Shown piece by piece: positions 15,689 to 61,288 of a stretch of DNA of 64,000 nt. Below the pieces are notes generated by a model, which worked only from the letters and a program-made list of their open reading frames with translations, was not told the DNA's origin and did no database searches. A program made the translations under genes and the position numbers. Within the stretch, counting starts at the first letter, position 1; every line of letters begins with the position of its first letter. Source of the stretch: Escherichia phage vB_EcoM-fFiEco06. The stretch lies in sequence record NC_054914.1; one strand, 5' to 3'.

Positions 15689-15692
15689 CAAT

Positions 15693-15710
15693 GGGGACCT
15701 TTCGGTCCCC
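15693..15710. terminator. Bidirectional terminator hairpin (ggggacc-tttc-ggtcccc) between gene 54 and the alt cluster
   Basis: 7-bp GC stem; T-run on the plus side. Confidence 0.6.
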
Positions 15711-15716
15711 ATATTT

Positions 15717-16007: not shown

Positions 16008-16015
16008 TTTGTGTT

Positions 16016-16068
16016 CCTCATGTTATGTCAGTAAGACTACTATAACACAACACGAGGGACTTGTAAAC
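16016..16068 (-). promoter_or_regulatory. Early promoter/stem-loop cassette, copy A (identical to 31830..31882)
   Basis: Minus strand: GTTTAC (-35), 17-bp spacer, TTATAGT (-10), then GAGG Shine-Dalgarno; 12-bp imperfect inverted repeat brackets the -10. Confidence 0.6.
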
Positions 16069-18125
16069 TACATTTTGAACTTTTTAGACATTCCGTTGAT
16101 GTTAACCAAAGAAGTCAAGATTTGAGAAACTTCATTTTCCTCTTCTTTTGATTCTTCTACAAGGAATTGATTAAATCCAGCCATTGGACGAACTTCACCA
16201 GTTTCCATTAGATGGTCTCCATCATATACTGATTCTTCTAATTGTTCAGAAGGAGGAACGATTGTACCTTCGATTAGATACTTGTTATAAGCAGTTTCTT
16301 TCATAAAGTACGTACTTACTTTATTAATCTTCAGTAAAATTCCACGTGGTAGAATAACTTCAGCTTCTGATGGAAATCCTGATAAATGACCTGGAACGAT
16401 AACTTTGATTCGCTCAGCTCCTTTAATTACCATACCCACGCTAGTTTCTGCATCTTCATTAGCATATGTAGAATGACTACCCATATGCATCAAATCTTCT
16501 GCATCAACGGAACCTTCTCCTTCACCAGAAAATACTGCGCCGGAATCATCTAGAGCCATATAGTTTTTACCATGCTCACCGAAGATATTTGGTTTAAGCG
16601 ATGTGGATACGAAGTTCTTGAAATAGAACATTTTATTTTCAATGTTATGACGCAAAGTTTTAAAGGTAACTTCTTGCCCACGGTAAAGTGTAGTTCCTGG
16701 AGGAAGAACTGATCCTTTGGCAAAGGCAGAATCTAACGTCTCGATGTGCTTAATAGCTCGTTCCATGTATTCTTCACGGGTAGAATCTGGTTTACCCAAA
16801 AGGAACGAGTTCATTTCAACATATGAATCTGCACAATAATCTTCAATTACATCAGATTCAGCCTGAGTCAGTCCTTTTGGAGCTACTTCGGTGCTTGCGT
16901 ATTCATATGCCTGGGCAGCAGATTCATTAATCAATTTATAAATGCCATTCATTACAAATTGAATAATAGCTGTCTTTTCATCTGGTGTGGTTTTAGAACC
17001 TTTAACTAAATCATTAATAATTTTCTTAATAACATCAAAGCTATTAGAAATATTAATGTCAGCAAGATCGCTTAAAATTTTATCAGTTTTATAATCAAAG
17101 AATTCTTTATTCTTTAAATATTCTTGAGAACCTTGATATGTTATATCGCTCTGCAACTTGATAGATGGATCACGTAAACGTGCATGGGCCAATGCAATAT
17201 GATTTCGGAAGCTTTCTAGTTCATAATCGCTAGATTTAAAACGAGAAGCACTTCTCATACCACCGATAGCTCCTTTGCTGAAGTTTGAACCAATCTGGAT
17301 AACGCCAGAGTTCATTGGTCCTTCTGCTTTATATACCGGAACTTTAGATTCAAACTCTTGATATTTCTTGGCAGCGAAGCTATCACCCTGTAGCGAAGCA
17401 TCGACAGTAGAATATTGAGCTTGTGCTGCTAATCGACGACTAATTTTAGTTTTCTGAATAACAGCTTGGTCCGTGCGCTTATCATTTTCTAAAGCAATAG
17501 AAGCAGCAACAGCGACAGCTTTAGGAACAGCATTTCCTGTTTTAACGTCTACATAAACATCACCGACCTTTGATTCAACTTTTGTGAATAACTCAGTTGA
17601 AATGGGAGGTACACCTGGAATGTCTTCTAAATTGGCATTTTTACGGTAAACCATAATATATGCGTACTTTTTATCGTAATCCCAGATTTCCTTTAAAAGA
17701 ACATATCGACCTGCTCCTTTAGTACGTACTAAACGGTCAGCAATAACTTGCATTTGACGAGCTGCGCCATTTGTTTTACTCTTTAGTACACGGAATAAGC
17801 ACGCGTCAATTTTATACTGCTTCATTGTTTGAAGAGCAGTATCAAAAACGGCATTAATGACACCAATTGGATTTCCACCCAAGTTTTTAAGCTTAACTAA
17901 TGATAGTTTCTCATTAACACCTATCATTACGATATGCATCATTTTATCGCCTGGCTTAACGTTTTTATTCGTATCACCACCAGAGGTGTATGTACAAAAT
18001 CTAAATCCAGGAAGCACGCTTTCTTCGCCGGCTTGAATAGCAAAAATTTGTGGTATTTTATGCTTAGGATTTAAGTTAACAACCGGCGCCGAAGCGCCGT
18101 CAAATAATTCTGTAATAAGTTCCAT
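16068..18125 (-). CDS. Alt-like ADP-ribosyltransferase, diverged tandem paralog
   Basis: 685 aa; N-terminus MELITELFD… nearly identical to Alt; R-S-E ART motifs (LYRGQ, FVSTSL, EAEVILPRG). Confidence 0.85.
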   Translation of the reverse strand: MELITELFDGASAPVVNLNPKHKIPQIFAIQAGEESVLPGFRFCTYTSGGDTNKNVKPGDKMMHIVMIGVNEKLSLVKLKNLGGNPIGVINAVFDTALQTMKQYKIDACLFRVLKSKTNGAARQMQVIADRLVRTKGAGRYVLLKEIWDYDKKYAYIMVYRKNANLEDIPGVPPISTELFTKVESKVGDVYVDVKTGNAVPKAVAVAASIALENDKRTDQAVIQKTKISRRLAAQAQYSTVDASLQGDSFAAKKYQEFESKVPVYKAEGPMNSGVIQIGSNFSKGAIGGMRSASRFKSSDYELESFRNHIALAHARLRDPSIKLQSDITYQGSQEYLKNKEFFDYKTDKILSDLADINISNSFDVIKKIINDLVKGSKTTPDEKTAIIQFVMNGIYKLINESAAQAYEYASTEVAPKGLTQAESDVIEDYCADSYVEMNSFLLGKPDSTREEYMERAIKHIETLDSAFAKGSVLPPGTTLYRGQEVTFKTLRHNIENKMFYFKNFVSTSLKPNIFGEHGKNYMALDDSGAVFSGEGEGSVDAEDLMHMGSHSTYANEDAETSVGMVIKGAERIKVIVPGHLSGFPSEAEVILPRGILLKINKVSTYFMKETAYNKYLIEGTIVPPSEQLEESVYDGDHLMETGEVRPMAGFNQFLVEESKEEENEVSQILTSLVNINGMSKKFKM

Positions 18126-18128
18126 GAT

Positions 18129-20183
18129 TTATCCTTGAACGAACTTGTAAGGCATGTTTGCAATATCTATACAAGACGCAATAATTCCAAGAGATGATTC
18201 TACTTTCTGTTTAACGTTTGATGAAACAAATGATGTAAAGTCAACTCTGTCTTCTATTTCAATATCACCTGTCATTGCAACTACTTCGCCGGTTTCCATT
18301 AGACGGTCACCGTCATAAATTACCGATTCGGTGAGTTCTTCTGTGGTCATAACTTCAGCTTGAATAAGCTTGTTGTTAGTTTTAACTGTTCCATCATTGT
18401 AAGATGCATCGGTTATTTTATTAACTTTGACCATTAATCCACGTGGCAAAATGACTTCCATTTCATTTGAAGGTGCTAAACTTCCACCTGGTAAAACAAC
18501 ATTGACTTTATCAGCCCCAGTAATAACCCATCCAATTCCAACTAAATTATCGCTAGAATTTACTAGTCCTTCATCAGTTTTATCAATAGAAACACTTAAA
18601 CGCTTTTCGTCTGGTAAAACACCCACAGATGAATCAGTCATCCAGGTACCAAAAATATTTGGATATAATGATGTTGACACAAAATTTCTAAAATAAAAAA
18701 CTCGATTTTTTACCAGTGCTTCATATATTGAAGGTAACATTCGTTGTGAACGATACAAAGTAATACCTTTTGGTAATCGTTCACCATTTTTAAAGGCAGA
18801 ATCTAAATTATCAATAGCTTTTTCTATATCAGATGCTGTCAAAATACTTGTACGCTCATCTGGATTATATAATCCCAAAAGAGCGTTATTTATGTCTACA
18901 TATCCTGAACTTACGTATTCACGAATTCCGCGTTTTTGTGCCGGTGTGTATTTAGATGAATCTTTATTTTCGACTATAGGATGTAGTGACCATCCAGCGG
19001 TAAGAGCATATCCACGCAATTCTCTTCGAATAATCTTTGTTTTTATTGCATTCCAAGAATTTTGTACTAACTCATTCGCAGCATCTTGATTTAAATGCGA
19101 ATGCTTGTTAATGTTTCTTTCTAACCAAGCACCTTTATATTTTTCTAAAGTATCATCAACTATAGAAGCAATAGTTTCTAAAGTTTTTATTGAAGTAATA
19201 GATTCTTTTCGTAATCTTTCTAAAGCTTTATTTTTTATTTCTGCATTAACATCAGATTCTTTATCTTCAGGAATTATAGAAGCTTCTCTGAATGCCATTC
19301 CAGCTGTAACACTACTAAGAGCATTCTCTAATGCAAATCCTGAAGTAGAAATAACAGTTAATTCATTAGCGTCAGAAATTAAAGGAGCGTCAGCAGGTTT
19401 ATTTAATTCTGCTGCTGAAGCCTCAAATTTTTGAAACATCGGCGTTTCAAATCTAGAAGATTCCAATGATTGACTTTGCGCAATTGCTCTACGGGAAATT
19501 TTAACTTTAACGATTACAGCTTGGTCAGAACGTTTATCATTTTCTTGCGCAATAGATGCTGCAATTGCCTCATTTTTAGTTACTTGAGCTCCAGTATCTT
19601 TATTGATATAAACATCACCGACCTTCGATTCAACTTTAGTAAAGAGCTCAGTACTAATTTCCGGAACTCCCGGAATGTCTTCTAGTGATACATTTTTGCG
19701 ATGTATAAGAATATATGCATACTTTTTATCGTAATCCCAGAGTTCCTTAAGAAGGACATATCTGCCACCTGAACGACTACGGATAAGTCTATCAGCAATA
19801 ACTTGAATTTGTCGAGCTTGACCAGCGGTTTTAGACTTAAGAATACGAAGCATACAGGCATCAATTTTATACTGACGCATTGTTTGCATCGCAACAGTAA
19901 AAACTGAATTGATATAATTAATTGGGCTTGGACCAAGACCTTTTAATTTAGCAATTGAACCTTTAGCAGTTAATGTAAAAGGAACAATATGCATCATTTT
20001 ATCGCCCATCTTTAAATCGCGATTAGTATCACCTCCAGATGTATAGGTACATAAACGAAAGCCTGGTTGTTCAATTGCATCATCAACATGAACTGAAAAA
20101 ATTTGCGGTATTTTCTTCTTTGGATTTAAGTTTGTAATCGGAAGAGTAGTATCTTCGTCAAATAATTCTGTAATAAGTTCCAT
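18129..20183 (-). CDS. alt: Alt ADP-ribosyltransferase (packaged internal head protein)
   Basis: About 684 aa from the second Met; ART motifs LYRSQ, FVSTSL, EMEVILPRG; N-terminal ITE prohead-protease-type site. Confidence 0.88.
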   Translation of the reverse strand: MELITELFDEDTTLPITNLNPKKKIPQIFSVHVDDAIEQPGFRLCTYTSGGDTNRDLKMGDKMMHIVPFTLTAKGSIAKLKGLGPSPINYINSVFTVAMQTMRQYKIDACMLRILKSKTAGQARQIQVIADRLIRSRSGGRYVLLKELWDYDKKYAYILIHRKNVSLEDIPGVPEISTELFTKVESKVGDVYINKDTGAQVTKNEAIAASIAQENDKRSDQAVIVKVKISRRAIAQSQSLESSRFETPMFQKFEASAAELNKPADAPLISDANELTVISTSGFALENALSSVTAGMAFREASIIPEDKESDVNAEIKNKALERLRKESITSIKTLETIASIVDDTLEKYKGAWLERNINKHSHLNQDAANELVQNSWNAIKTKIIRRELRGYALTAGWSLHPIVENKDSSKYTPAQKRGIREYVSSGYVDINNALLGLYNPDERTSILTASDIEKAIDNLDSAFKNGERLPKGITLYRSQRMLPSIYEALVKNRVFYFRNFVSTSLYPNIFGTWMTDSSVGVLPDEKRLSVSIDKTDEGLVNSSDNLVGIGWVITGADKVNVVLPGGSLAPSNEMEVILPRGLMVKVNKITDASYNDGTVKTNNKLIQAEVMTTEELTESVIYDGDRLMETGEVVAMTGDIEIEDRVDFTSFVSSNVKQKVESSLGIIASCIDIANMPYKFVQG

Positions 20184-20206
20184 CATAGCCTCTCTAGTGT
20201 TTATTC

Positions 20207-20214
20207 TATTTATA
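20207..20214 (-). promoter_or_regulatory. Late promoter TATAAATA (minus strand) upstream of alt
   Basis: Plus-strand tatttata about 25 nt upstream of the alt start. Confidence 0.55.
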
Positions 20215-20235
20215 AAATTAAAGGCCCGAAGGCCT

Positions 20236-20424
20236 TTAATAATCTAGTGGTAAGAGAGTACGGTATATTTCAAACTTTGGACCTTTTTCATAGGCATCAA
20301 ATGTTTCTGTGAATTTATTATAAGCGTATGCATCTACAAATTCGAGAATGACTTGTGATACAGAAGTAGAAACATCTCCACCTTCTTTTTGAGCAATGAC
20401 AATTGTTTCTAAGTAAGCTTTCAT
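20236..20424 (-). CDS. Hypothetical small protein
   Basis: 62-aa ORF, overlaps the gene 30 stop. Confidence 0.5.
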   Translation of the reverse strand: MKAYLETIVIAQKEGGDVSTSVSQVILEFVDAYAYNKFTETFDAYEKGPKFEIYRTLLPLDY

Positions 20425-21884
20425 AAACCAGTTACCTCATGAAAATCACCAAATACATCCTCGAATGTATTAGCTTTAGTTTTATCTTCACGCAAACGAA
20501 TCGCAATCGGAAGAAATAATTTAACGTAATCAGTGCGGCCATCAGATTTTAACCAACCGTTGCATTCGCACTCTAGAATTTTTCCAATATAATAATTTTG
20601 GTTTTCCATAATGCGAGTACGGTCAAGTTCATGCGATTTTACACCGGCTTTATCTTTTAAGCCTGAACCAGCATTTACTTTAATTTTTCCACACTCTGAC
20701 TCAAGAATAAATCCACCTGCTTTAGTAGGGTCTTTACGGTGAGGATAAATTCCTACAATTTTTAAATCAACATCAATTACTTCTTTAAATTTATAGAGAT
20801 TTTTTGAACGAGCATTTTCCCATAATCCATCGATATTTTTGAGAATAATACCTTCAAGACCTTGGTCAATATACTTTTTATAAATTACCTTGGCTTCGTC
20901 TAGGTTATTTACTACCTGGTTTTCAATTAAAATTACTTTATCATAGCCTGATGTCATTTGTTCTAGTTTAGAAAAACGTACATCATATTTCAAACGAAAT
21001 GCAGGAAGACCGTATATTTCTACCAACGGTACATAATCCCAGACCTGAAACTTCATGCATTGTGCTTCTTTTTCAGAAATGGTTCCCTTTAAAGATTTAT
21101 TGGCGATGCCATTAGATGCAGTACGTGATTCAGCTACTTCGGCGAATTCTTTAGCTTTACTGTTTTCAGGATAAGCATCAAAAAGAAAATCTAGGCCTTC
21201 TGGCTCCTTTTCAACTTGCTCATGGTATACCAATTCGCCATCAATTAACACACCTTCTGGATGAATCTGGCGAGCTTCTGCAGTCATTTTGATTAACTCT
21301 TCTTTGAGAAGATCTAATCCTAGATATTCATTACCAGCTCGTGATAAAAGACGAACATCATCTAATTCATCACCTCTGACTTCAGCAAAGCACCGAGCTC
21401 CATCAGCTTTTAATTGGGCAAAGGCTGGAAATTTGATATTCTTGCTAATGCCTTTTTCATCATAAGAACTTGCCAGCATTTGAGGTTGTTCAGGAATTAA
21501 ACCTGGCCAAACTTTGTTTGCAATAGATACTGATGCACCGCATTCAAGGTCTCGCATCATCACCCGACGCAAAACTTCAACATCATCTTTTTTACCGTCA
21601 GCAATATATCCAGTCAATTCCTCAATTGCCGCATTTCCAGTCAATTTCCGAGTAGCTAATGTGAATTCAATGAAGTCAAGCATATCGGTAAGAGTCAACA
21701 TTCCAAAACTCTGGGTAGCAATACCAGGTTTAGGCCATTTCTTGATATAATACTGTAACCCACGAGAATAAGTTAGACGATATACTCGTTTAAGCAATTC
21801 ATTATCTTTATTCTTTTCAAGAATTGCTTGCTTCTGCTTAGTTGAACCAATAGATGCTATTTTGTTCAGAATTTTAAGAATCAT
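20421..21884 (-). CDS. 30: ATP-dependent DNA ligase gp30
   Basis: 487 aa; adenylation motif KADGAR. Confidence 0.93.
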   Translation of the reverse strand: MILKILNKIASIGSTKQKQAILEKNKDNELLKRVYRLTYSRGLQYYIKKWPKPGIATQSFGMLTLTDMLDFIEFTLATRKLTGNAAIEELTGYIADGKKDDVEVLRRVMMRDLECGASVSIANKVWPGLIPEQPQMLASSYDEKGISKNIKFPAFAQLKADGARCFAEVRGDELDDVRLLSRAGNEYLGLDLLKEELIKMTAEARQIHPEGVLIDGELVYHEQVEKEPEGLDFLFDAYPENSKAKEFAEVAESRTASNGIANKSLKGTISEKEAQCMKFQVWDYVPLVEIYGLPAFRLKYDVRFSKLEQMTSGYDKVILIENQVVNNLDEAKVIYKKYIDQGLEGIILKNIDGLWENARSKNLYKFKEVIDVDLKIVGIYPHRKDPTKAGGFILESECGKIKVNAGSGLKDKAGVKSHELDRTRIMENQNYYIGKILECECNGWLKSDGRTDYVKLFLPIAIRLREDKTKANTFEDVFGDFHEVTGL

Positions 21885-22150
21885 TGTTCATCCTTTAGAG
21901 TTTGGTTTACAGCTCTATTATAAATCAATTCATCATTAAGCTCAGTCAAAGACTTGTGGTACGTGGTTCTAACTTTATTTCCTTGCATCCAGTGCTTGAC
22001 GTAAATGAAACCTTGCTCTACACATTTTTTAAAAATTCGTTCGTCTTTTTGAGCTCGGAATTCTGGATTGCATCTAAAAAATTGATTTACGTGACCGTAA
22101 TCACGTGTAGTATTACCTTCATTTTCATAAATAGTGTGAACGACAAACAT
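21881..22150 (-). CDS. Hypothetical protein (30.1-like)
   Basis: 89-aa ORF, overlaps neighbouring genes. Confidence 0.55.
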   Translation of the reverse strand: MFVVHTIYENEGNTTRDYGHVNQFFRCNPEFRAQKDERIFKKCVEQGFIYVKHWMQGNKVRTTYHKSLTELNDELIYNRAVNQTLKDEQ

Positions 22151-22986
22151 TAGAATGCTCCTTGAAAAATATTATCACCACTAGTAGGTCTATTATACAA
22201 ATACTCTATGCCACCGGGTTTAATATAGTTCCATGTCTGAAACGGATGCGTCTGATATGGATGATATAGATTATAAGGATTAAATCCAGGAGTTCTCCAG
22301 GTAGTGTTCCAAGGAAAAGAATCGTTTTTAATCATCTTTTCAATTACATCTTTTATAGCTTTTTCACTATCAAAACTTTCTTTATTTTCATTCGATGGAA
22401 AAAGCTTATTCTCTACATCATTCCATGTATAAACTCGCTGTGCAGTTTTTGGAATACTGTCACGCTCCCCTCGAGCCATCCAATAAACAGGAACATTTAA
22501 TATTTCACTCGCATGATCGCAGTGGTGAGCGAGATCGTCAATATAACAAATTACGTTATATTTCTCTTTTGCCTTTTTGAACAACTCTTCTTTTGAAGAA
22601 TCATGACCACACATCAATACTTCTGAGAAGGCACCAGGAAAAAGAGCATTCAAATTAAATTGACGATTCAGCAGAGCGTCAATAGAATCACCCAGTGCTG
22701 TAACAGCTACAAAATTATAATCTTCTTTTAATTTGTTAATTACACACAGGGCATCTTTATATGGAGACAAATAGCGAATAAAATCTGAACGATTATACTT
22801 TTCGATTAATTTAACACCAAGTTCTTCATCGCAATTAAAGAGCTTACCAGGAGAAATAAATTTTTCGTCCTGAATCATTTTTAAAATATGTTCCAACGGA
22901 AGATTATATTTTTGGGCAAAATAAGGAAGGCCCGATTGCCAGCTTAAACACACCCCGTCAATATCAGTCAAAATAGTAGGCTTCAT
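22150..22986 (-). CDS. HAD-superfamily hydrolase-like protein (30.2-like)
   Basis: 278 aa; N-terminal DIDGV (HAD motif I) and later DD motif (YIDDL). Confidence 0.65.
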   Translation of the reverse strand: MKPTILTDIDGVCLSWQSGLPYFAQKYNLPLEHILKMIQDEKFISPGKLFNCDEELGVKLIEKYNRSDFIRYLSPYKDALCVINKLKEDYNFVAVTALGDSIDALLNRQFNLNALFPGAFSEVLMCGHDSSKEELFKKAKEKYNVICYIDDLAHHCDHASEILNVPVYWMARGERDSIPKTAQRVYTWNDVENKLFPSNENKESFDSEKAIKDVIEKMIKNDSFPWNTTWRTPGFNPYNLYHPYQTHPFQTWNYIKPGGIEYLYNRPTSGDNIFQGAF

Positions 22987-23447
22987 AGAGAGTCTCTTAA
23001 TAGGTTTAACACATCAATAAATTCAGCTTCGGTTAGTATTGTATCATCTTTTGTTAGACCACTAGCCATGCTATGCTTCAAAATTTTTCCTTTAGAGGCT
23101 TGTAAGGCATCACGAAACCCCTTGTTTTGAATCGCTGCTTCAAAATATGCATTTGTATACAACTCTTTCCATGCTGCAGAGTATCTTGAAAAGGGAATTC
23201 CAAGCCAGAAAAGCGTCCCACGGTCCGCAGCTCTTGCATAAGCTCTTCCACTTTGCTGGGCGGCCAAGCCGGAGAGCCCAAATATACGTTTTTGTTGTTC
23301 AACATTTTTCACCTTGCATCCTTGGAGGAATCCTTCAAGACCTCCGAATTGAATACCATCCATGACGAAAGGCCATTGGGCGAAATTACTTAATGCACAC
23401 GATGGCCATCTAAAATTGCTTCTAATCTCTAACTCAGACATTTTCAA
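22983..23447 (-). CDS. NADAR/YbiA-like domain protein (30.3-like)
   Basis: 154 aa; LSNFAQWPFVMDG…EGFLQGCK resembles the conserved SNFAxWP…EHYFQ core of YbiA/NADAR. Confidence 0.6.
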   Translation of the reverse strand: MKMSELEIRSNFRWPSCALSNFAQWPFVMDGIQFGGLEGFLQGCKVKNVEQQKRIFGLSGLAAQQSGRAYARAADRGTLFWLGIPFSRYSAAWKELYTNAYFEAAIQNKGFRDALQASKGKILKHSMASGLTKDDTILTEAEFIDVLNLLRDSL

Positions 23448-23640
23448 TACTTATAATTTCAACATCAGCCCAATGACCATAGCAAGGAAGACGAAATTCA
23501 ACTGGCCAGTTAGGGTCCTTTTCTAATATAATAGACTTAACTTGTGGTTCTTCATGTTCATCAGTATACGGATTTTTATCTGTTACTTTATATGTGACCT
23601 TAATGTACTGAATTCCAAAAATCTTATTAATTATATTCAT
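23434..23640 (-). CDS. Hypothetical protein
   Basis: 68-aa ORF. Confidence 0.45.
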   Translation of the reverse strand: MNIINKIFGIQYIKVTYKVTDKNPYTDEHEEPQVKSIILEKDPNWPVEFRLPCYGHWADVEIISIENV

Positions 23641-23834
23641 ACTAATTCCTTTAATCCGTAAATAGGAGACAATTCATCACCCATACGAAGGTCTTCATTT
23701 CCATCTACCCAGGAAACAATATAAGCCTCTTTTATTTGAATACCACTCCATTTAAATGGAGGTAGAACCTTAGAAATTAATCCAGGTATACCAACTCCCT
23801 TTAATTCAACAGTTTGACCTAAAAAGAATTTCAT
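23637..23834 (-). CDS. Hypothetical protein
   Basis: 65-aa ORF. Confidence 0.45.
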   Translation of the reverse strand: MKFFLGQTVELKGVGIPGLISKVLPPFKWSGIQIKEAYIVSWVDGNEDLRMGDELSPIYGLKELV

Positions 23835-24121
23835 TAGAACCTCATCTGAAAGCCATGCGATTTAACATTACCGCCGCCAATATCAGAAATATTAATTTCA
23901 CGCGCAATTGAAGGGTCAATGTCAATTTCACGATTGAGTTTAGTGATAGCTAAAGTATCGCGCCCATTTACTGTACGGAACTCTAGAGGACAAACCACAT
24001 TAACGTAGTTTTTAATCGATTCACTGGTAGGTTGCAAATGAGCAGGAAGATCTTTAGGCGCCTTAGAGAAAACTACTTCGCAGAAGTTTTTACGAGTATC
24101 AAAATAAGTAGTCATAAACAT
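23834..24121 (-). CDS. Hypothetical protein
   Basis: 95-aa ORF. Confidence 0.5.
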   Translation of the reverse strand: MFMTTYFDTRKNFCEVVFSKAPKDLPAHLQPTSESIKNYVNVVCPLEFRTVNGRDTLAITKLNREIDIDPSIAREINISDIGGGNVKSHGFQMRF

Positions 24122-24162
24122 AGTATTTTCCTCAGTAAGGGGCCGAAGCCCCTCATTTTATT

Positions 24163-24540
24163 TTAAATATCAAATTCGTTAAGAACTACATCAAAGATTG
24201 CTTCAAGATGCTCAGGTTTAGCTCTGTTACTCAGAATATGACGAATCCAAGTTTTAACCAAAAGCTTGCGATTAGCGCCATTCCAGCAAGGATGAGTCCC
24301 TAAATCGCGTTGACGGAAATCATCATCCAGAGCGATTTTAAAGTTGGAACCTTCCATTGTGATTGAAACCGTGATACCGTTTTCAAATCGCATATAAACG
24401 TAATTAGGAGTCATATACTGTTCAATTTCGCATACTGAACCATTTTGATGTTTCCAAAGGCAGATGGTATCAATAGAACCTGTAATACCATTAGAAACAT
24501 ATTTACGTTCAAAGTTAATGTAGTTCATTTTATTCTCCAA
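24163..24540 (-). CDS. Hypothetical protein
   Basis: 125-aa ORF preceded by an early-type promoter. Confidence 0.55.
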   Translation of the reverse strand: MENKMNYINFERKYVSNGITGSIDTICLWKHQNGSVCEIEQYMTPNYVYMRFENGITVSITMEGSNFKIALDDDFRQRDLGTHPCWNGANRKLLVKTWIRHILSNRAKPEHLEAIFDVVLNEFDI

Positions 24541-24597
24541 GATGTTTAATTGCGGTACAGGTATATAATATCATGTCCTGTACCAAAGTAAACTATT

Positions 24598-24966
24598 TTA
24601 TGCAACTTTAATCCAATTATCTAAATTTAATTCACCTTTGGCTTTCATTTTTTCAATCAAGAGGTCAGCGGTAATACGACCATTTTGATACCACGTAACA
24701 TCTTCAGAGTAACCAGTTTCTTTATCTTCATAAGTCTCACAGCGAATTTTACCAAGAATCAAAGTTTTTAATTCGTATGTATCTCCAGTAAAAAAGTTAG
24801 TTAACATTATTTTCCAAGAGAAATCATCAGAAGGACCTTCAGGAGTCATACAATCTACAAATTCAAATTGTTCTTTATATAAATGCCACTGAAGTTCTTT
24901 AGTTTCGATAGCTTTATAGCCGTCGTGATCTTTACCTTTGATGTATGAGTTAAGATTGATTTTCAT
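24598..24966 (-). CDS. Hypothetical protein
   Basis: 122-aa ORF. Confidence 0.55.
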   Translation of the reverse strand: MKINLNSYIKGKDHDGYKAIETKELQWHLYKEQFEFVDCMTPEGPSDDFSWKIMLTNFFTGDTYELKTLILGKIRCETYEDKETGYSEDVTWYQNGRITADLLIEKMKAKGELNLDNWIKVA

Positions 24967-25053
24967 TTTATTCTCCTTTGTTTGTGTAAGATAATACTAT
25001 CACAAAGGAACCATACTGTAAACAACTTTGTGCAATCTTTGGAAAATAAAAAA

Positions 25054-25071
25054 GGACTCCCGAAGGAGTCC
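25054..25071 (-). terminator. Intrinsic terminator (ggactcc-ttcg-ggagtcc + T-run on minus strand)
   Basis: Perfect 7-bp stem followed by TTTTTTATTTT on the minus strand, right after the stop of the 25077..25295 ORF. Confidence 0.6.
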
Positions 25072-25076
25072 TCAAC

Positions 25077-25295
25077 TTATGCTTTCTGCTTACCAAAACG
25101 AGAAGCATCATCTCGAAGAACCGCACGTGCTCGGCGCATGATCTTCTCAACAGTTTGATTGATACGAGAGTTCGACCCACGCTTGTAGCCAGCGCGTTTA
25201 GAATCACCAACTTTCTTTTCAACTGCTTTCTTTGCTTTAACTTGTTTTGCCATTATAAATTCTCTTTTAAATGAAAATGCAGGACTTATTGACAT
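25077..25295 (-). CDS. Small basic protein (30.9-like); probable start at the internal Met (25253)
   Basis: Lys/Arg-rich ORF; preferred over the overlapping 24968..25222 ORF. Confidence 0.5.
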   Translation of the reverse strand: MSISPAFSFKREFIMAKQVKAKKAVEKKVGDSKRAGYKRGSNSRINQTVEKIMRRARAVLRDDASRFGKQKA

Positions 25296-25498
25296 TGCCT
25301 GCGCAAGCCCTCAAGGGGAACATAGGTTTTTGGATATTTAACGACCAGGATAACCATAAACCCGTCATCATTCACATTCAAGAGGTACACCGTAAAACTG
25401 CCGGGGTCTTAAAACTATAATGATTCGCAAATCATTAATCAGACAGTTCGACGGCTCCTCGATTTTAGCTCACACTAAGGCAGTGAATCTCCAATAAA

Positions 25499-25747
25499 TT
25501 ACTTCAATGTTACCACAAAGTGACGAACTGCTTTTCGTGCAGCAGAAGCCAGAGGCTTAGCATATTTAAGTTCATCTTTTTCCTGAAGCTCAGCAGCTAA
25601 TGCAGTTTGAGCAGGATTCAGATGTTTGAAATAACGCAGGATTTCAAGAGCTTCGGCTTCAACATCAATAGATGCGCCATAGTTTTCGTGACCATTATTC
25701 CATGCGTTTCGTTGCAGTTCAAGAGCGTGTTGTAATTGTTTAATCAT
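25499..25747 (-). CDS. rIII: rIII lysis inhibition accessory protein
   Basis: 82 aa; position upstream of gene 31 region as in T4. Confidence 0.85.
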   Translation of the reverse strand: MIKQLQHALELQRNAWNNGHENYGASIDVEAEALEILRYFKHLNPAQTALAAELQEKDELKYAKPLASAARKAVRHFVVTLK

Positions 25748-25886
25748 TTAAAAATTCTCGTTAGAGATTAAAACTCGGTAGTCACGTTCTTCTGAATTTC
25801 ATCTTCTTTCGACAGATCTCTCAGTTGTAGACTACCACATAGAATTGTTCGGTTAACTTATTATTCCGACACCCAATTCATATTAT

Positions 25887-25894
25887 TATTTATA
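25887..25894 (-). promoter_or_regulatory. Candidate late promoter (minus-strand TATAAATA) upstream of rIII
   Basis: Plus-strand tatttata directly after the gene 31 stop. Confidence 0.4.
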
Positions 25895-26230
25895 TCACTT
25901 ATAAAGACACGGAATAGCTTTATAGTGACAAGTAACGAATTTTTGTTTAATTTCTTTTGGCTGCTTAAGACCCAGAGCTACAAAAGGATGCGGAACATTT
26001 CGAATTTGACCAACTGGAAGAGAAGTCAAATCACCAACTTCGCAGAAACCTTCAGGAACATCAGGACCAACAGAGTGAACTACACACAGTTCAGGAACTT
26101 CACCTTGGACACGTTTACCAATAATAAGTCCTGATTCTGTAACTTCTTCATCACCGGCTTGTGCAGGTTCAGAAACTAAAATAACATATTCACCGACAGC
26201 ACGAATTGGTAGCTGTTGTACTTCAGACAT
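25895..26230 (-). CDS. 31: Co-chaperonin gp31 (GroES-like)
   Basis: 111 aa; synteny and size. Confidence 0.9.
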
Positions 26231-26286
26231 CGTTTTTCCTTTTTGTTAACAGATGAATTAATAATAACAAATAGTTCTTAAAGCAT

Positions 26287-26595
26287 TTATTTACCAATAA
26301 ATTGAAGCAAATGCTCAACTTTCATACCATTAACGGAAATCAATTTGTCAATAGAAAAACCTCGCCACGCACCAAGCTCAACATCAAATACTGGAATCAT
26401 GTCAGTAGATTCTTTCCGAGTAGATTCAGTCAATTTGCCAGTTTGCATGGTTGGCATAAAGTCCGCGTCGCGAGTACCTTTCATAACACGAATAGTACCG
26501 TCAGACTTTTCAAAAACTACGTTTGAAACACCCATGGACAATTTAGTTTTCAAAATTTCACGAATTGCTACTTTTTGTTCAGTCGTCAGTTTCAT
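26287..26595 (-). CDS. Hypothetical protein (31.1-like)
   Basis: 102-aa ORF. Confidence 0.55.
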   Translation of the reverse strand: MKLTTEQKVAIREILKTKLSMGVSNVVFEKSDGTIRVMKGTRDADFMPTMQTGKLTESTRKESTDMIPVFDVELGAWRGFSIDKLISVNGMKVEHLLQFIGK

Positions 26596-26832
26596 TTATT
26601 TACCTATTACAGTTTTAATATGAGTTGTTCCACGTTCTTTAAGAGTGGAAAGTAATTTTTGGCATTTTTCTAAATCAGATTTCCAACTATATGGTCTATC
26701 AATACAAACCCATTCTGACTTATAATACTGCTTCCATTTAGAGAAAAAATATTTCTTATACTCTACAGCAAATGAAATATTCTCATTAGAATAAGAACTA
26801 ATTGCTGTGAGCTGTACCAAACGAAATTTCAT
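26596..26832 (-). CDS. Hypothetical protein (31.2-like)
   Basis: 78-aa ORF. Confidence 0.5.
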   Translation of the reverse strand: MKFRLVQLTAISSYSNENISFAVEYKKYFFSKWKQYYKSEWVCIDRPYSWKSDLEKCQKLLSTLKERGTTHIKTVIGK

Positions 26833-27413
26833 TATTCACCACAGAATTCGTTGATATTTTCCCAGTTTAACTTATTCAAGTTTTTCTTAGGAACATTAAA
26901 CACTTCAATACCTGCATTTCGCAGAATATCATCCCAGCCAGGTTTATTTTTATCGTATGTTTCACAATAAACCAGCTTTTTAATTCCAGATTGAGCTATT
27001 GCTTTTGCACAATCTGGGCAAGGAGAAAGTGTTACATACATAGTAGCACCTTCAATTGAAGAACCGTTTCGTGCAGCAAACAAAATCGCATTTAGTTCAG
27101 CATGAATTTCATTTTTAGACGACCATTCAGAGTGCGCGCTACGATGTTCTTTCGCCAATACAAAACGATCAGTTGAACCAAACGATACACATTCAGGCTT
27201 ATGACCTTGAATGATAGTATGTTTAGGTTTATTCAGCAACCAACCTTGCTCAGCAGCATAATCACAACAGTTCACACCACCTGCAGGTGAACCATTATAT
27301 CCAGTAGAAATAATACGTCCATTCTTTTCAATTACTGCTCCTACTTTCCAGGAGCAACATTTTGATTCTTGTGATACTAAATATGCAATTTGAAGTACTG
27401 TACTCGCTTTCAT
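26832..27413 (-). CDS. cd: dCMP deaminase
   Basis: 193 aa; zinc-binding HAELNAI and PCPDC motifs. Confidence 0.92.
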   Translation of the reverse strand: MKASTVLQIAYLVSQESKCCSWKVGAVIEKNGRIISTGYNGSPAGGVNCCDYAAEQGWLLNKPKHTIIQGHKPECVSFGSTDRFVLAKEHRSAHSEWSSKNEIHAELNAILFAARNGSSIEGATMYVTLSPCPDCAKAIAQSGIKKLVYCETYDKNKPGWDDILRNAGIEVFNVPKKNLNKLNWENINEFCGE

Positions 27414-27748
27414 TTCATAATCACCAGATAAGCAGATTTAGCAGTTTCAACACGATAAATTTCGTGACGAAGTTTAGTTATACTTTTAATAACAGAACTA
27501 ATTATATTCTGCCCATCTTTAAAGCGGTTTTTCTTATCAATAAAAATTGCGCCAACCATCTTTTTGTGAAGCTCAACCGGATACTTCGTCACAATAATAG
27601 CATCATACACAGAAGGATGAATACTATTCACCAAAGTATCATTCATTAAAGTTATTCTAATGAACTTTGCTGTTTCAGAGTCAAGCGCTCTATGATCGCC
27701 AGTATCATTTTCAAGACAATTATCAATTATATCAGTTAAATTCATCAT
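27410..27748 (-). CDS. Hypothetical protein
   Basis: 112-aa ORF. Confidence 0.5.
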   Translation of the reverse strand: MMNLTDIIDNCLENDTGDHRALDSETAKFIRITLMNDTLVNSIHPSVYDAIIVTKYPVELHKKMVGAIFIDKKNRFKDGQNIISSVIKSITKLRHEIYRVETAKSAYLVIMK

Positions 27749-27981
27749 AGTACGCCATACACCCTTTGTGCTTCAACTAATCCATCAAAATCCAATTTGA
27801 GATGTGTTATTTGGTCACCATCACCTGGATTCACAATTACTAATACTGAACGAGGAGTTTCGGTAATAACACGAACCGATGTTTCGGGAAATCGTTCAGA
27901 AACCTTATTTACTAATTCCTGCGCAAATAGTTTAACTTTTTCTTGGAATTCTTTAACAGTAATTGGTTTTTCACTTAGCAT
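27745..27981 (-). CDS. Hypothetical protein
   Basis: 78-aa ORF. Confidence 0.5.
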   Translation of the reverse strand: MLSEKPITVKEFQEKVKLFAQELVNKVSERFPETSVRVITETPRSVLVIVNPGDGDQITHLKLDFDGLVEAQRVYGVL

Positions 27982-28502
27982 GTTGATCCCAGCTCCTTAC
28001 TTTCAACGTTTTTAACTAATTTGACAGAAACTAATTCAGCATCTTGGGTAATCATTACCGGGCCTTCTTCATGCTCTTCAAGATATTCTAGAGCTTTCTT
28101 TTTAGCTTCTTCCTTCGTATCAGTTTGAGCATAGATATAGAACATACAACCAGTAATACCTACTACTTTCCACTTAATTTCTTTATCAGTTTTAATTTCA
28201 AATTTACTTACAGAATCATCTTTTTGAACTTCTTCGAAAAAAGAATATTCTAACATATAAGCAATTGAAAATAACGGGCTAACTTTATAGGATTCACCCA
28301 TTACATCAACAGCTTTATACCAACAATCATCAATTTCGCGTTTAATGCTAATAACATTTTTCGCAGGATCTATTTTTACTTTAAATGAATTTTCCCCAAT
28401 AAACTGGGCAATTCGTTTATTAGCCCCGCAAGTTTCATTAAAAATATCTTTATACCCAGTTTTAAAGCGATAAACCTTATCTTCTTCAAACCATTCGCTC
28501 AT
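27975..28502 (-). CDS. Hypothetical protein
   Basis: 175-aa ORF. Confidence 0.55.
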   Translation of the reverse strand: MSEWFEEDKVYRFKTGYKDIFNETCGANKRIAQFIGENSFKVKIDPAKNVISIKREIDDCWYKAVDVMGESYKVSPLFSIAYMLEYSFFEEVQKDDSVSKFEIKTDKEIKWKVVGITGCMFYIYAQTDTKEEAKKKALEYLEEHEEGPVMITQDAELVSVKLVKNVESKELGSTC

Positions 28503-28563
28503 TTCAATTTCCTCGTTTGTTTTGGTAGAGCTATAATATCACAACTCTACCGTAAAGTAAACT

Positions 28564-28869
28564 TTAAATTGCTTTGAATTCTGATGTCTGTGATTTAAAG
28601 CGAATATCGCCTTTGATGACTAGCTCAGCATCAAGACCGAATACGACAATGATATGCGCGGAACCTGGATACAACGTGATGGCAACAGAATCCACCTGGT
28701 CTGGAAGCAAAGTGTTCAATACATGAGTCACTTGAGCATGGATTCGAAGCTCAGCTGCGTTATCAAGTTTTTCAAACATATTATTAGCGATAATTTGGCT
28801 AAACACTACTTCTACGATTTTAGAGTAAGTCGGAAACATATTTACCTCACATAATTTTCTTCGAGCCAA
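28564..28869 (-). CDS. Hypothetical protein
   Basis: 101-aa ORF. Confidence 0.5.
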   Translation of the reverse strand: MARRKLCEVNMFPTYSKIVEVVFSQIIANNMFEKLDNAAELRIHAQVTHVLNTLLPDQVDSVAITLYPGSAHIIVVFGLDAELVIKGDIRFKSQTSEFKAI

Positions 28870-29034
28870 TCAATAACATCCAAAGCGTTATCAAAAGTTG
28901 CGCCATCTACTTTGTCTTCTGTTTCATAATCAAGAACATCTAGGCCTACTCTTCCGTCAACAATAGGCCATAGACAAAATAGATATTTCTTTTCTTTTTC
29001 AATTTTATCACAAAGACGATAAATCTTTTCTAGG

Positions 29035-29042
<8 letters not shown>
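28842..29042 (-). CDS. Hypothetical protein
   Basis: 66-aa ORF. Confidence 0.45.
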
Positions 29043-30450
<1,408 letters not shown>

Positions 30451-30454
<4 letters not shown>

Positions 30455-30681
30455 TTATTTTTCTCAACCAATGATTGAATATAATCATGCAGGTCTTTAG
30501 ATGCTTTGCCCCACTTATTTTGGTATTCATTTTTAAGATTAGCACGTGATTGAGCTAATAAAACATCATTAGTTGGAGGTAAAGATTCTAATCGCTGAAT
30601 CTGGCGTCCATAAATCATTGCAGCCATCTCGGATTCATAAATCAATCCTTTGAGATGTTCAAATTGATGCCATGAAATCAT
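30451..30681 (-). CDS. Hypothetical protein
   Basis: 76-aa ORF. Confidence 0.5.
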
Positions 30682-30977
30682 TTACATTTATCCTCTTTTA
30701 ACTCTTGACGATAATAACATATCATAGTTTTCTGGTCGTGTACATATCGTTTTACATCATTAAGCCAAATACGAAATTCCTGAGAATCTTCAAATGGCAT
30801 ACCGACCCAAGCTTTACCATCAATAACTTTAACTTGCCAAGATAATTTAGCTTCGTCATATGACTTTATTTGTACAGGCCAATTAGGATGAACTGTTTCT
30901 TTCTTTACTTCTAGAGGCTTTGTCGAACAACCAACTAGAAGACCAATAGATAATATTACTGCTGATAGTTTAATCAT
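30678..30977 (-). CDS. Outer-membrane spanin-like lipoprotein (o-spanin candidate)
   Basis: Signal peptide with lipobox LVGC; about 99 aa; overlaps the preceding i-spanin-like gene. Confidence 0.65.
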   Translation of the reverse strand: MIKLSAVILSIGLLVGCSTKPLEVKKETVHPNWPVQIKSYDEAKLSWQVKVIDGKAWVGMPFEDSQEFRIWLNDVKRYVHDQKTMICYYRQELKEDKCK

Positions 30978-31327
30978 TTAGAAAGGTCCTGGATGTCTTC
31001 TGCGAACTTGTTGAAGGAGTTGTTGATTTGTTTTTCAACCAATCCTGGCTTACGAGCCACCACATCCGCCTTCTTTGCATCTTTGCGCAGTTTTTCATTT
31101 TCACGCTCAATAGCAGCAATCGCCTCACGATTTTTATTATTCATCGCATCAATATAATTATACTGAATTCGCAAATTATTTAATGCTAAGGCGTTTTCAT
31201 TGGCCGTTTTTGTAATTTCTACAACAGACGTTTCTAATCTTTCAATTTTATTTTTTAAAATTAAAGAAGTTCCGCCTAATGCAATTACAATTAATAGCAA
31301 ACCTGCTGTCGTATTACTTAATTGCAT
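30974..31327 (-). CDS. Inner-membrane spanin-like protein (i-spanin candidate)
   Basis: N-terminal transmembrane helix followed by a coiled-coil-like region; 117 aa. Confidence 0.65.
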   Translation of the reverse strand: MQLSNTTAGLLLIVIALGGTSLILKNKIERLETSVVEITKTANENALALNNLRIQYNYIDAMNNKNREAIAAIERENEKLRKDAKKADVVARKPGLVEKQINNSFNKFAEDIQDLSK

Positions 31328-31824
31328 AAAGTTTTAATAACCTCTATAATATCGTCTTGAGAAAGACCGTTAATTAAAATATGATGTTCAGCCGGAGATT
31401 TAGAAATTTTAAAGCACGCCGCAACATCTTCTGCCATATCCGATGCGCTACGATTTGGATTACTAATTCCAAGACGATGTTTTCCCGTTAAAGGATTAAC
31501 GATGATATAGCATTTACAGTTGTTAATATGAACATTAGGTTGAGTCTGATTAATGAACACATCGCAATCATATTTCGCAAGCTGATTTTCTAAAAAGACT
31601 TTCATCTCCTCAACCGCATCAGGAAGCATATCACGGGCTTGCTCAAGACGACGATTTCGATATTCTTTAATGGTCGTTTTCCGCTTGACTTGCTTAGCTA
31701 AATCTTTCTTAAGATCGGTGATATATCCAACTCGACGATTTCCTTTAAATACAGAAATCCCATCTGTAGTATCACCGTATGCTTCAACGACCATTTCAGT
31801 AGTAATAAGCTGCAAATCCATCAT
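31318..31824 (-). CDS. alc: Alc, host transcription terminator for cytosine-containing DNA
   Basis: 168 aa; position between the spanin pair and rnlA as in T4. Confidence 0.8.
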   Translation of the reverse strand: MMDLQLITTEMVVEAYGDTTDGISVFKGNRRVGYITDLKKDLAKQVKRKTTIKEYRNRRLEQARDMLPDAVEEMKVFLENQLAKYDCDVFINQTQPNVHINNCKCYIIVNPLTGKHRLGISNPNRSASDMAEDVAACFKISKSPAEHHILINGLSQDDIIEVIKTLCN

Positions 31825-31829
31825 AAAGT

Positions 31830-31882
31830 CCTCATGTTATGTCAGTAAGACTACTATAACACAACACGAGGGACTTGTAAAC
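31830..31882 (-). promoter_or_regulatory. Early promoter/stem-loop cassette, copy B (identical to 16016..16068)
   Basis: 53-bp perfect copy; supplies -35, -10 and SD for alc. Confidence 0.6.
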
Positions 31883-31885
31883 AGC

Positions 31886-33473
<1,588 letters not shown>

Positions 33474-60648: not shown

Positions 60649-60708
60649 ATTAATTTCCTCTAAATTATTTTCTACTCCAAGGCCGTATGAATACACACGG
60701 CCGATAAA

Positions 60709-61281: not shown

Positions 61282-61288
61282 ATTTTCC

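Follow-up and report, generated by a model that had tools for sequence, protein, structure and literature searches.

The window, that is, the whole 64,000-nucleotide stretch of Escherichia phage vB_EcoM-fFiEco06 DNA that was analysed (NC_054914.1), comes from a Tequatrovirus close to phage fHoEco02. Two of its genes, alt.-3 and alc, are each preceded by the same short cassette, which runs from a promoter -35 region to an SD sequence and of which the minus strand is the sense strand at both loci. The features are the following (positions in the window; those in brackets are for copy 2).

15691..15712, no strand assigned: GC-rich hairpin resembling a terminator, located between gene 54 and alt.-3, where the minus-strand transcription unit probably ends
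15717..16007, minus strand: alt.-3 (96 aa, DUF5498), served by copy 1
16015..16068, minus strand: cassette copy 1 (54 bp, -35 to SD), between the stop of the second alt-like gene and the alt.-3 ATG
16016..16029 (31830-31843), minus strand: 3' arm of the hairpin, GACAUAACAUGAGG, including the SD GAGG (RNA fold)
16032 (31846), minus strand: predicted transcription start, the A in TTACTGAC, 7 nt past the -10 (standard sigma-70 spacing)
16039..16044 (31853-31858), minus strand: -10 TATAGT, in the hairpin bulge and apical stem
16044..16057 (31858-31871), minus strand: 5' arm of the hairpin, CCUCGUGUUGUGUU, inside the promoter spacer (RNA fold)
16062..16067 (31876-31881), minus strand: -35 TTTACA (consensus scan)
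16068..18125, minus strand: second full-length alt-like ADP-ribosyltransferase gene, whose transcripts run into copy 1
20207..20214, minus strand: late promoter TATAAATA, immediately before alt (ATG at 20186; motif scan)
31318..31824, minus strand: alc, for an inhibitor of host transcription (Pfam ALC); served by copy 2
31829..31882, minus strand: cassette copy 2 (54 bp, identical), between the rnlA stop (31886-31888) and the alc ATG

The two cassettes form a direct repeat of 54 bp (16015-16068 and 31829-31882; 54 of 54 positions identical; family D9 of the repeat-family analysis), with a copy-to-copy spacing of 15,814 bp and flanks that show no relatedness on either side. The earlier note had described a perfect repeat of 53 bp; an exact search confirmed both copies of it (16016-16068 and 31830-31882), identical throughout, but the true length is one base greater. 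In 100 dinucleotide-preserving shuffles, with up to three mismatches allowed, no match to the 53-bp sequence was obtained; the repeat is real and is not a product of chance. The search for further copies that had been named as a check found 995 places in 498 GenBank records of T4-like phages, T4 and T6 among them, with two copies per genome. Both copies are thus conserved in essentially all of the ~498 genomes, at a distance from each other of ~13-16 kb in those inspected. A search of Rfam with the 15.5-32.5 kb region gave a single match, a sub-threshold Atu_C8 located elsewhere, and no known RNA family at the cassettes.

The minus-strand promoter that the earlier note had read in the repeat was borne out by a promoter scan. 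Both copies carry TTTACA and TATAGT with a 17-bp spacer and an upstream TG, match the consensus at 10 of 12 positions, and are the top-scoring site of their intergenic region (tied at 10/12 in that of alt.-3). The -35, the spacing, the TG-extended -10 and a C/A-rich leader ending in GAGGA are shared with generic T4 early promoters, the consensus of which, as used in PMC1524935, consists of a GTTTAC -35 and an extended TGnTAtaAT -10 (Miller et al., 2003). Unlike such promoters, the present pair is identical from end to end and contains a long helix that sequesters the SD; the other early promoters of the window (families D1 and D4) resemble each other by only ~60-80%. Early-type promoters were found at 13 sites on the minus strand of the window. 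The GAGGA SD lies 8 nt from the ATG of alt.-3 and 5 nt from that of alc. On the other side, copy 1 shares the initial G of GTTTAC with the stop codon TAG (16070-16068), and in copy 2 the rnlA stop codon is 3 nt from this motif. Hairpins do not figure in the five-genome T4-like paper, although it describes early promoters, and the DksA/T4 paper does not mention alc and alt.-3.

In T4 omics data, alt.-3 and alc belong to the early class, for RNA and protein alike, whereas alt, alt.-1 and alt.-2, just upstream of alt.-3, belong to the middle or late class, alt itself being expressed late. That alt.-3 is early although it lies downstream of the late gene alt supports the activity of the cassette promoter. 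The late promoter motif is absent from the cassette, and its nearest occurrence on the minus strand is at 20214, upstream of alt. A terminator scan found none between the upstream gene and the cassette at either copy. Because no terminator precedes the cassettes and a late promoter lies upstream of alt, read-through into them is plausible, and late read-through RNA from the alt promoter would be expected to carry the full hairpin of copy 1. In T4, the junction of the truncated alt.-1/alt.-2 lies ~20 nt upstream of copy 1.

Folded in silico, the sense RNA of the cassette forms a hairpin of 14 bp that includes two G.U pairs, followed by a 2-nt bulge and 4 more bp (18 bp in total); its energy is -22 kcal/mol (z -5.4) and GAGG is fully paired. 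The 12-bp imperfect inverted repeat that had been noticed around the -10 is real, but it extends further as sense RNA (14 + 4 bp). The antisense strand folds at only -12.8 kcal/mol, because the two G.U pairs exist on the sense strand only. An intrinsic terminator was considered as a reading of the hairpin and was rejected, since the hairpin has no U-tract and gave no match in the scan at either copy.

Within the hairpin, the -10 occupies the apical part, and the start predicted from spacing falls in the 3' half; RNA made from the cassette's own promoter should, if this start is correct, carry the 3' arm only, without the 5' arm. Such own-promoter RNAs gave weak folds (-2 to -5 kcal/mol). The cost of opening the region from the SD through the AUG, calculated at both loci (alt.-3 and alc) in the window and in T4, was 9.8-14.0 kcal/mol for read-through RNA compared with 1.1-3.1 kcal/mol for own-promoter RNA. 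This TIR opening free energy was used instead of the mean unpaired probability of SD and AUG, which is noisy since weak pairs weigh as much as strong ones. According to these calculations, the hairpin probably hides the SD on transcripts that arrive from upstream.

Upstream of alc, this layout is kept in eight genera with differing, co-varying arm sequences: besides Tequatrovirus, it was found in Gelderlandvirus, Karamvirus, Jiaodavirus, Dhakavirus, Winklervirus, Moonvirus and Gualtarvirus. When the 5' and 3' halves from seven of these genera (all but Gualtarvirus) were cofolded, cognate halves gave a mean of -21.5 kcal/mol versus -12.6 kcal/mol for swapped halves, and the SD was fully paired in 7/7. 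The cofold test replaced an analysis of the cross-genus alc cassettes by MAFFT and RNAalifold, in which the arms were mis-registered and the consensus was weak (-4.2 kcal/mol). GenBank records were used for the comparison; retrieval from IMG/VR with Alc and Alt.-3 yielded just five relatives each. In a Providencia phage, the 3' arm also covers the AUG of alc. Sequestration of the SD upstream of alc is absent in RB69 (Mosigvirus), in Serratia phage 92A1 and in an Acinetobacter phage; therefore, the hairpin feature is dispensable.

Within Tequatrovirus, one genome carries a double compensatory change, C15T together with G50A, which turns a C-G pair into U-A; other genomes have the U.G intermediate of this pair, and changes from G.U to A-U were observed too. 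Of the different substitutions in the stem, about half disrupt a pair (G16T, G40T, C12A, G29A), and substitutions within the genus give weak support to selection for pairing. Most cassette variants are confined to a single locus or occur in locus-specific haplotypes, PV654517 being the sole genome in which G16A and T27C are shared by both copies. Concerted evolution or ongoing homogenisation of the two copies, which was also considered, is not supported by this locus-specific distribution.

A different, ungated promoter is present upstream of alt.-3 in most other genera sampled. In Dhakavirus C6 and Moonvirus NM4.3, a gated cassette at alc and a different, ungated one at alt.-3 coexist in the same genome. 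Since the gated layout is kept at alc in eight genera and most other genera have an ungated promoter at alt.-3, the repeat is best read as an alc-type cassette that was copied to alt.-3; a regulatory cassette appears to have moved between loci, because alt.-3 of Tequatrovirus holds the alc type and that of most sampled genera another. The pairwise identities of whole cassettes, spacers and leaders were all ~0.6-0.8 and did not point to a donor locus.

The best explanation of these observations, to which we give a probability of about 0.6, is a gated early cassette, the alc type of which was copied into the alt.-3 site in Tequatrovirus. Each copy would be a self-contained early unit made of a sigma-70 early promoter, a leader of ~22-25 nt and an SD, in which the promoter spacer (5' arm) is complementary to the leader and SD (3' arm). 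Read-through RNA, coming from alt and the alt-like gene under the late promoter in the case of alt.-3, and from rnlA in the case of alc, would contain both arms and form the 18-bp hairpin, so that the SD is occluded. RNA initiated in the cassette would begin in its 3' half, lack the 5' arm and leave the ribosome-binding site open. Translation of alc and alt.-3 would then depend for the most part on the immediate-early transcripts of these two genes and be shielded from read-through at middle and late times. The Tequatrovirus lineage would have acquired the alc-type gated cassette before alt.-3 in place of the resident promoter cassette, most likely by ectopic recombination or conversion bounded by the common motifs GTTTACA... 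and ...ATGAGGA.

The hairpin could instead act on the upstream message (rnlA, alt), as a 3' stabiliser, a processing site or a pause/attenuator, the promoter being embedded in it by chance. Both copies directly follow a stop codon. Other early promoters of the window (24593, 28562 and 40850), like the regions before alc in Serratia 92A1 and in the Acinetobacter phage, have a hairpin around the -10 that does not reach the SD; the dyad may accordingly have a role beyond, or instead of, SD occlusion. We nevertheless regard an action on the upstream message as unlikely: the hairpin lacks the U-tract, the terminator scan was empty at both copies, and the 3' arm lies exactly over the SD in eight genera, and over the AUG as well in Providencia, a position that is needless for a 3'-end element.

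It is doubtful that gated early-promoter cassettes are, more generally, units of ectopic conversion in T-even genomes that rewire gene timing. The whole promoter-leader module, bounded by GTTTACA and ATGAGGA, would in that case be copied between upstream regions, the alc-type module to alt.-3 in Tequatrovirus and a generic promoter half with a spacer hairpin to alc in Mosigvirus, and the palindromic DNA itself might stimulate exchange.

The earlier note had likened the repeat to PeSL cassettes, proposed mediators of modular gene shuffling, and had added that it could support deletion of the intervening 15.8 kb. Taken further, this view makes the unit mainly a portable patch of homology, with two copies that would promote excision or deletion of the interval. 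PeSLs are, like the present cassette, compact intergenic units of promoter, stem-loop, SD and start that are repeated in a genome (Arbiol et al., 2010, PMC2839356; Comeau et al., 2014, PMC4122927). Published PeSLs of the PST/T4 type likewise end in an SD and a start codon, as both copies do, and have a promoter TTTACW-N17-TAYWAT, from which the cassette deviates at one position (G at position 5 of the -10). A cassette appears to have been exchanged between the alc and alt.-3 loci in evolution, Gaprivervirus CJ20 and Yersinia phage P8 have a rearranged rnlA-alc junction, and a homology of ~50 bp is usable for T4 recombination (Singer et al., 1982, as cited in PMC2839356). However, PeSLs are defined by a terminator-like stem-loop just upstream of the promoter, with an AT-rich tract, and are present in many copies, clustered in hyperplastic regions and adjoining indels (PMC2839356, PMC4122927). 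The cassette is not a canonical PeSL, because no terminator stem-loop lies upstream of its -35: its sole stem-loop encloses the -10 and the SD, has no U-tract after it and was negative in the terminator scan. There are just two copies per genome in 498 genomes, and both flank conserved genes. What stands of the earlier proposal is a conserved minus-strand unit of promoter, stem-loop and SD, but not its match to the published PeSL definition.

Comparison of the flanking gene content, which had been named as a check, revealed no breakpoint at either copy in the inspected genomes, and T4, T6, PV654517 and the IMG/VR relatives show no indel boundary at the site of either cassette. Mechanistically, loss of the 15.8 kb as proposed can be conceived, but gene 30 (ligase), gene 31, rIII, cd, pseT, the two alt genes and alc would go with it; since the interval contains essential genes (30 and 31), the deletion product would be non-viable alone. 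No deletion variant was found among the 498 genomes, essentially all of which keep both copies. Furthermore, the cross-genus covariation indicates selection on RNA pairing and not on sequence identity, and we consider a PeSL-type recombination cassette a poor candidate for the function of the repeat.

It is very improbable that the dyad acts as DNA, in the form of a cruciform or of a site for a dimeric protein that modulates the promoter, for example in early-promoter shut-off, the mechanism of which is not completely understood according to a review. The -10 does lie at the centre of the dyad, and some dyad in or around the spacer is found at many T4 early promoters. Yet arms that vary freely in sequence among genera but stay complementary speak against a sequence-specific protein site, and the two mismatches that are G.U in sense RNA are A.C on the other strand, so that a DNA cruciform would contain mismatches.

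The preferred reading, a gated early cassette, has its closest counterparts in the TIR hairpins of T4 e, soc, 49 and I-TevI, which are described in PMC3014915 as relieved by an internal promoter (McPheeters et al., 1986). In those genes, the SD lies in a helix on long upstream transcripts, as it does by prediction in the present case, and a promoter in or near the 5' strand yields a shorter translatable RNA without that strand, which our model would expect of the cassette too. The structure is conserved in relatives with the promoter within the 5'-strand region, and the stability of the helix that holds the SD is here an in silico result, together with covariation across genera. Two differences were found. 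First, the internal promoter is a late one, TATAAATA, in e, soc, 49 and I-TevI, and of the sigma-70 early type in the cassette; the predicted logic is thus 'immediate-early only' and not 'late only', and we file the cassette as a variant of the TIR-hairpin class and not as a plain member. Second, a single cassette is present twice, and gating at alc and alt.-3 is a computational prediction. The mobE gene of phage Aeh1 also has an RBS-sequestering hairpin (Gibb and Edgell, 2009, as cited in PMC3014915). By its published description it resembles the cassette in that an RNA hairpin hides the RBS of a gene within a longer transcription unit in a T4-related phage, but it belongs to a homing-endonuclease gene and differs in sequence.

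If gating is real, T4-type phages use the promoter-in-hairpin device in two ways. In its known use, a hairpin over the RBS with an internal promoter delays late genes that are located in early regions; in the new use, immediate-early genes, including alc, would be confined to the first minutes of infection despite heavy read-through later on, and a post-transcriptional layer would be added to the shut-off of early genes. The alt.-3 gene would then show how a complete timing programme can be gained in one step through a 54-bp cassette, and, should ectopic conversion of such modules prove general, regulatory evolution would proceed partly by cassette replacement, beyond point mutation alone. With gating, the cassette would also be a compact, portable part for early-only expression insulated from read-through. 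For annotation, identical intergenic repeats in T4-like genomes call for caution, as they can be regulatory modules and not recombination scars.

The 53-mer described in the earlier note as a perfect direct repeat was found with exact matches at 16016-16068 and 31830-31882 of the window, and the identity extends one base further, to 54 bp (16015-16068 and 31829-31882); the sequences flanking the two copies are unrelated on both sides. No match to the 53-mer was obtained in 100 dinucleotide-preserving shuffles, with up to three mismatches tolerated. The window belongs to Tequatrovirus, and the stretches tested were 100% identical to Escherichia phage vB_EcoM-fHoEco02 (MG781191.1). The coordinate offset between the two records was 103066 in one and 103067 in the other of two tested stretches (window 17500-30800), a shift of 1 bp that implies at least one single-base indel between them in this interval. 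The suggested search for further copies, by BLAST with the 54-mer, returned 995 places in 498 phage records, i.e. two per genome, all of them T4-type phages, T4 and T6 included; in the T4 reference one base differs between the two copies. Two copies per genome across 498 records show the pair to be fixed in the genus rather than peculiar to this isolate.

At both copies the sense strand is the minus strand, and each copy occupies a whole intergenic gap:

16015-16068, minus: copy 1, between the stop of the alt-like gene and the ATG of alt.-3
16068-18125, minus: second full-length alt-like ADP-ribosyltransferase gene, stop codon adjoining copy 1
15717-16007, minus: alt.-3 (DUF5498), downstream of copy 1
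31829-31882, minus: copy 2, between the rnlA stop (31886) and the alc ATG
31318-31824, minus: alc (Pfam ALC), downstream of copy 2
20214, minus: late promoter TATAAATA, directly upstream of alt
15691-15712: GC-rich hairpin, expected end of late alt transcripts

The TAG stop of the alt-like gene shares the first G of the GTTTAC of copy 1. The minus-strand sequence of each copy is GTTTACAAGTCCCTCGTGTTGTGTTATAGTAGTCTTACTGACATAACATGAGGA. A consensus scan gave TTTACA-17-TATAGT with an upstream TG (10/12 matches), a form typical of T4 early promoters, as the top-scoring site in both intergenic regions (in the first, a tie at 10/12). GAGGA lies 8 nt from the ATG at alt.-3 and 5 nt at alc. The sense RNA is predicted to form a hairpin (-22 kcal/mol, z = -5.4) with a 14-bp stem (CCUCGUGUUGUGUU / GACAUAACAUGAGG; two of its pairs are G.U), which a 2-nt bulge separates from a 4-bp apical stem; the predicted antisense fold is weaker (-12.8 kcal/mol) because the two G.U pairs turn into A.C mismatches. 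The promoter spacer supplies the 5' arm, the -10 falls in the bulge and apical stem, and the Shine-Dalgarno (SD) sequence is part of the 3' arm. The reading of a promoter, stem-loop and SD on this strand in the earlier note is correct.

Given the usual promoter spacing, transcription from the cassette would have the A of TTACTGAC as its first nucleotide and would produce an RNA with the 3' arm only. The predicted structures of such own-promoter RNAs are weak (-2.2 and -4.8 kcal/mol), and opening the SD through the AUG costs 1.1-3.1 kcal/mol in them versus 9.8-14.0 kcal/mol in read-through RNA, which starts upstream and carries both arms (ranges cover the two loci of the window and those of T4). 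We propose that the repeat is an early-promoter cassette whose hairpin would gate translation of the downstream gene against read-through RNA, and that it is present twice because an alc-type cassette was copied before alt.-3; we give this whole explanation a probability of about 0.6. That the cassette supplies a promoter and leader is very probable, and gating of translation by the hairpin is somewhat more likely than not. A mini-ORF of 4-5 codons on the minus strand (16007-16021 and 31822-31835; AUG AGG AAC ACA AAA UGA at alt.-3, AUG AGG ACU UUA UGA at alc) starts from an AUG within the 3' arm (in ACAUGAGGA), and its UGA overlaps the real start codon; it may be a coincidence, since no SD lies upstream of its AUG.

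The terminator scan found none between the upstream genes and either cassette; together with the late promoter before alt, this means that late alt RNA should cross both alt genes, copy 1 and alt.-3, and read-through RNA should be present at the cassettes. In published T4 time-course data (PMC9697503, supplementary files 4 and 6), both the RNA and the protein of alt.-3 and of alc are early, alt is expressed late, the RNAs of alt.-1 and alt.-2, the immediate upstream neighbours of alt.-3 in T4, are of the middle class, and rnlA has early RNA and late protein. The switch from middle or late to early class exactly at copy 1 independently supports a working early promoter there; it bears on the promoter and is no test of the translational block. 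The window carries two full-length tandem alt paralogues (16068-18125 and 18129-20186); in T4 (L003, 4066-4451) the second consists only of the remnants alt.-1/alt.-2, and Dhakavirus C6 has three paralogues. The T4 truncation keeps the last ~20 nt of the paralogue and the cassette, hence its junction is not at the repeat.

The rnlA-alc junction was compared in eleven further lineages. The layout (GTTTACA, then immediately the 5' arm, the -10 in the loop and the 3' arm over the SD) is kept with differing arm sequences in Gelderlandvirus STP4-a, Karamvirus UFV01, Jiaodavirus ValerieMcCarty04, Dhakavirus C6, Winklervirus CHI14 and Moonvirus NM4.3 (arm pairs such as CCATTTGGTT/AACCAAATGG, CATCAG/CTGATG and CATTTCGTT/AACGAAATG). 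In a swap test with these six genera and Tequatrovirus, cognate 5'/3' halves had a mean of -21.5 kcal/mol versus -12.6 kcal/mol for non-cognate halves, and the SD was fully paired in 7/7 genera. The extra cost of opening the translation initiation region (TIR) in read-through RNA was 6-15 kcal/mol in eight lineages, Tequatrovirus counted once. Providencia phage PSTRCR_127 (Gualtarvirus) has a variant in which the SD and AUG pair with the -10/+1 region. At alc of RB69 (Mosigvirus) the promoter is present and the SD hairpin absent (z about 0), and in Serratia 92A1 and an Acinetobacter phage a hairpin surrounds the -10 with the SD unpaired. Gaprivervirus CJ20 and Yersinia phage P8 have a rearranged junction in which the 5' part of alc is partially duplicated, so this junction is rearrangement-prone in some lineages. 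The duplicate forms a 77-aa ORF, a GC-rich terminator-like hairpin lies between rnlA and alc, and no promoter immediately precedes the true alc (CJ20, L025, 1930-2300; P8, L029, 1-215).

The predicted hairpin draws its main support from this cross-genus covariation; the modest variation within Tequatrovirus is only compatible with it. In PV654517 the double change C15T + G50A converts C-G to U-A, and the U.G intermediate of this pair occurs in T6 and one IMG/VR contig; G16A and G40A convert G.U to A-U, G16T, G40T, C12A and G29A break pairs, and all variant hairpins fall between -19 and -22 kcal/mol. Most variants in the two copies are private or confined to one locus and thus give no sign of ongoing homogenisation; the 54/54 identity in the window reflects both copies sitting at the genus consensus.

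In other genera too, an early promoter adjoins the alt stop codon before alt.-3. It is of a different type in Gaprivervirus, Marfavirus, Moonvirus, Dhakavirus and RB69, with a small spacer hairpin (e.g. CCAC-AAGGA-GTGG) and no added TIR-opening cost in read-through RNA; Dhakavirus C6 and Moonvirus NM4.3 each combine, in one genome, a gated alc with an ungated alt.-3. At alt.-3 of Kanagawavirus the AUG together with codons 2-4 is paired to the spacer (opening 12-15 versus 2-4 kcal/mol), and this modelled helix is a putative independent solution to TIR sequestration. In the two Kanagawavirus sequences (L023 and L024, 156-262), spacer GAATGAACGTGTT pairs with AAAATGCGTTCATTC at -24 to -32 kcal/mol and leaves the -10 in the loop.

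On the simplest reading, the alc and alt.-3 loci would at first have had different cassettes, and in the Tequatrovirus lineage that of alt.-3 would have been replaced by a gated cassette of the alc type. The swapped block would span exactly -35 to SD, two motifs common to all these cassettes and possible microhomologies. Such copying before alt.-3 is likely, and alc to alt.-3 is probably the direction of transfer, judged from the phylogenetic spread of the gated structure because sequence identity does not designate the donor locus. In RB69 the exchange seems to have been converse or partial: the promoter half of its alc cassette is of the generic spacer-hairpin type, its alc leader CAACAACACGAGG shows Watson-Crick complementarity with the T4 5' arm (-20.6 kcal/mol), and its two loci have leaders that agree by about 82% across 28 nt. 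The inferred replacement would fit the broader idea of mobile regulatory cassettes.

The earlier note also envisaged deletion of the intervening 15.8 kb. Recombination of 54-bp direct repeats is conceivable in T4, but the 498 genomes essentially all retain both copies. The product would be without gene 30 (DNA ligase) and gene 31, both essential by established T4 genetics, and would also lose alc, pseT, cd, rIII, alt and the alt-like gene. Any such molecule would be a dead-end or helper-dependent. The proposed assignment to promoter-early stem-loop (PeSL) cassettes found little support. PeSLs are defined by a terminator stem-loop upstream of the promoter, by an AT-rich tract, by many copies in hyperplastic regions and by association with indels (PMC2839356, PMC4122927); our cassettes share the promoter type and SD but differ in where the stem-loop lies and what it does, in the number of copies and in the link to breakpoints, and are therefore not filed as PeSL. 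A terminator role for the hairpin was rejected, as no U-tract follows it and the terminator scan was negative at both copies.

Thirteen early-promoter-like sites were found on the minus strand of the window, among them six (GTTTAC positions) that likewise have the 5' arm in the spacer, the -10 in the loop and the 3' arm in the leader:

61460, minus: 5' arm in spacer, SD in 3' arm (-22.7 kcal/mol, z -5.5)
25023, minus: 5' arm in spacer, SD in 3' arm
61963, minus: 5' arm in spacer, SD in 3' arm, partly
24593, 28562 and 40850, minus: hairpin around the -10 only, SD spared

A perfect 44-bp tandem duplication (TTATTTTCTAAAGTAGCGTTAACTGTCATTTTCTCGCTAGTGCT x2, 60797-60884) lies between an ndd-like ORF (60190-60696, minus) and a small ORF (61084-61302, minus); each unit, read on the minus strand, contains GAGAAAATGACAGTT..., an SD-like site and an ATG. 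No Rfam family matched the cassettes. Adjoining the 25023 promoter, 25038-25121 (minus) gave a sub-threshold match to the Rhizobiales sRNA Atu_C8 (31.4 bits versus a gathering score of 50, E = 0.006), most likely by chance.

The closest known mechanism is that of the T4 genes e, soc, 49 and I-TevI, which have inhibitory TIR hairpins with an internal promoter; alc and alt.-3 are not among the genes named in that review (PMC3014915). SD sequestration and an internal promoter are common to both, whereas the internal promoter is late in those genes and early in the cassettes, so that the predicted timing is inverted, to immediate-early only. The hairpin-embedded early-promoter architecture is apparently undescribed so far, although the T4 genome literature may hold an earlier mention of the two promoters or of their identity. 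The cassette thus represents a variation on an established T4 regulatory principle, of moderate interest to phage specialists. From its occurrence at further sites, the layout seems to be generally available to T4 early promoters, and the dyad may also act beyond SD occlusion.
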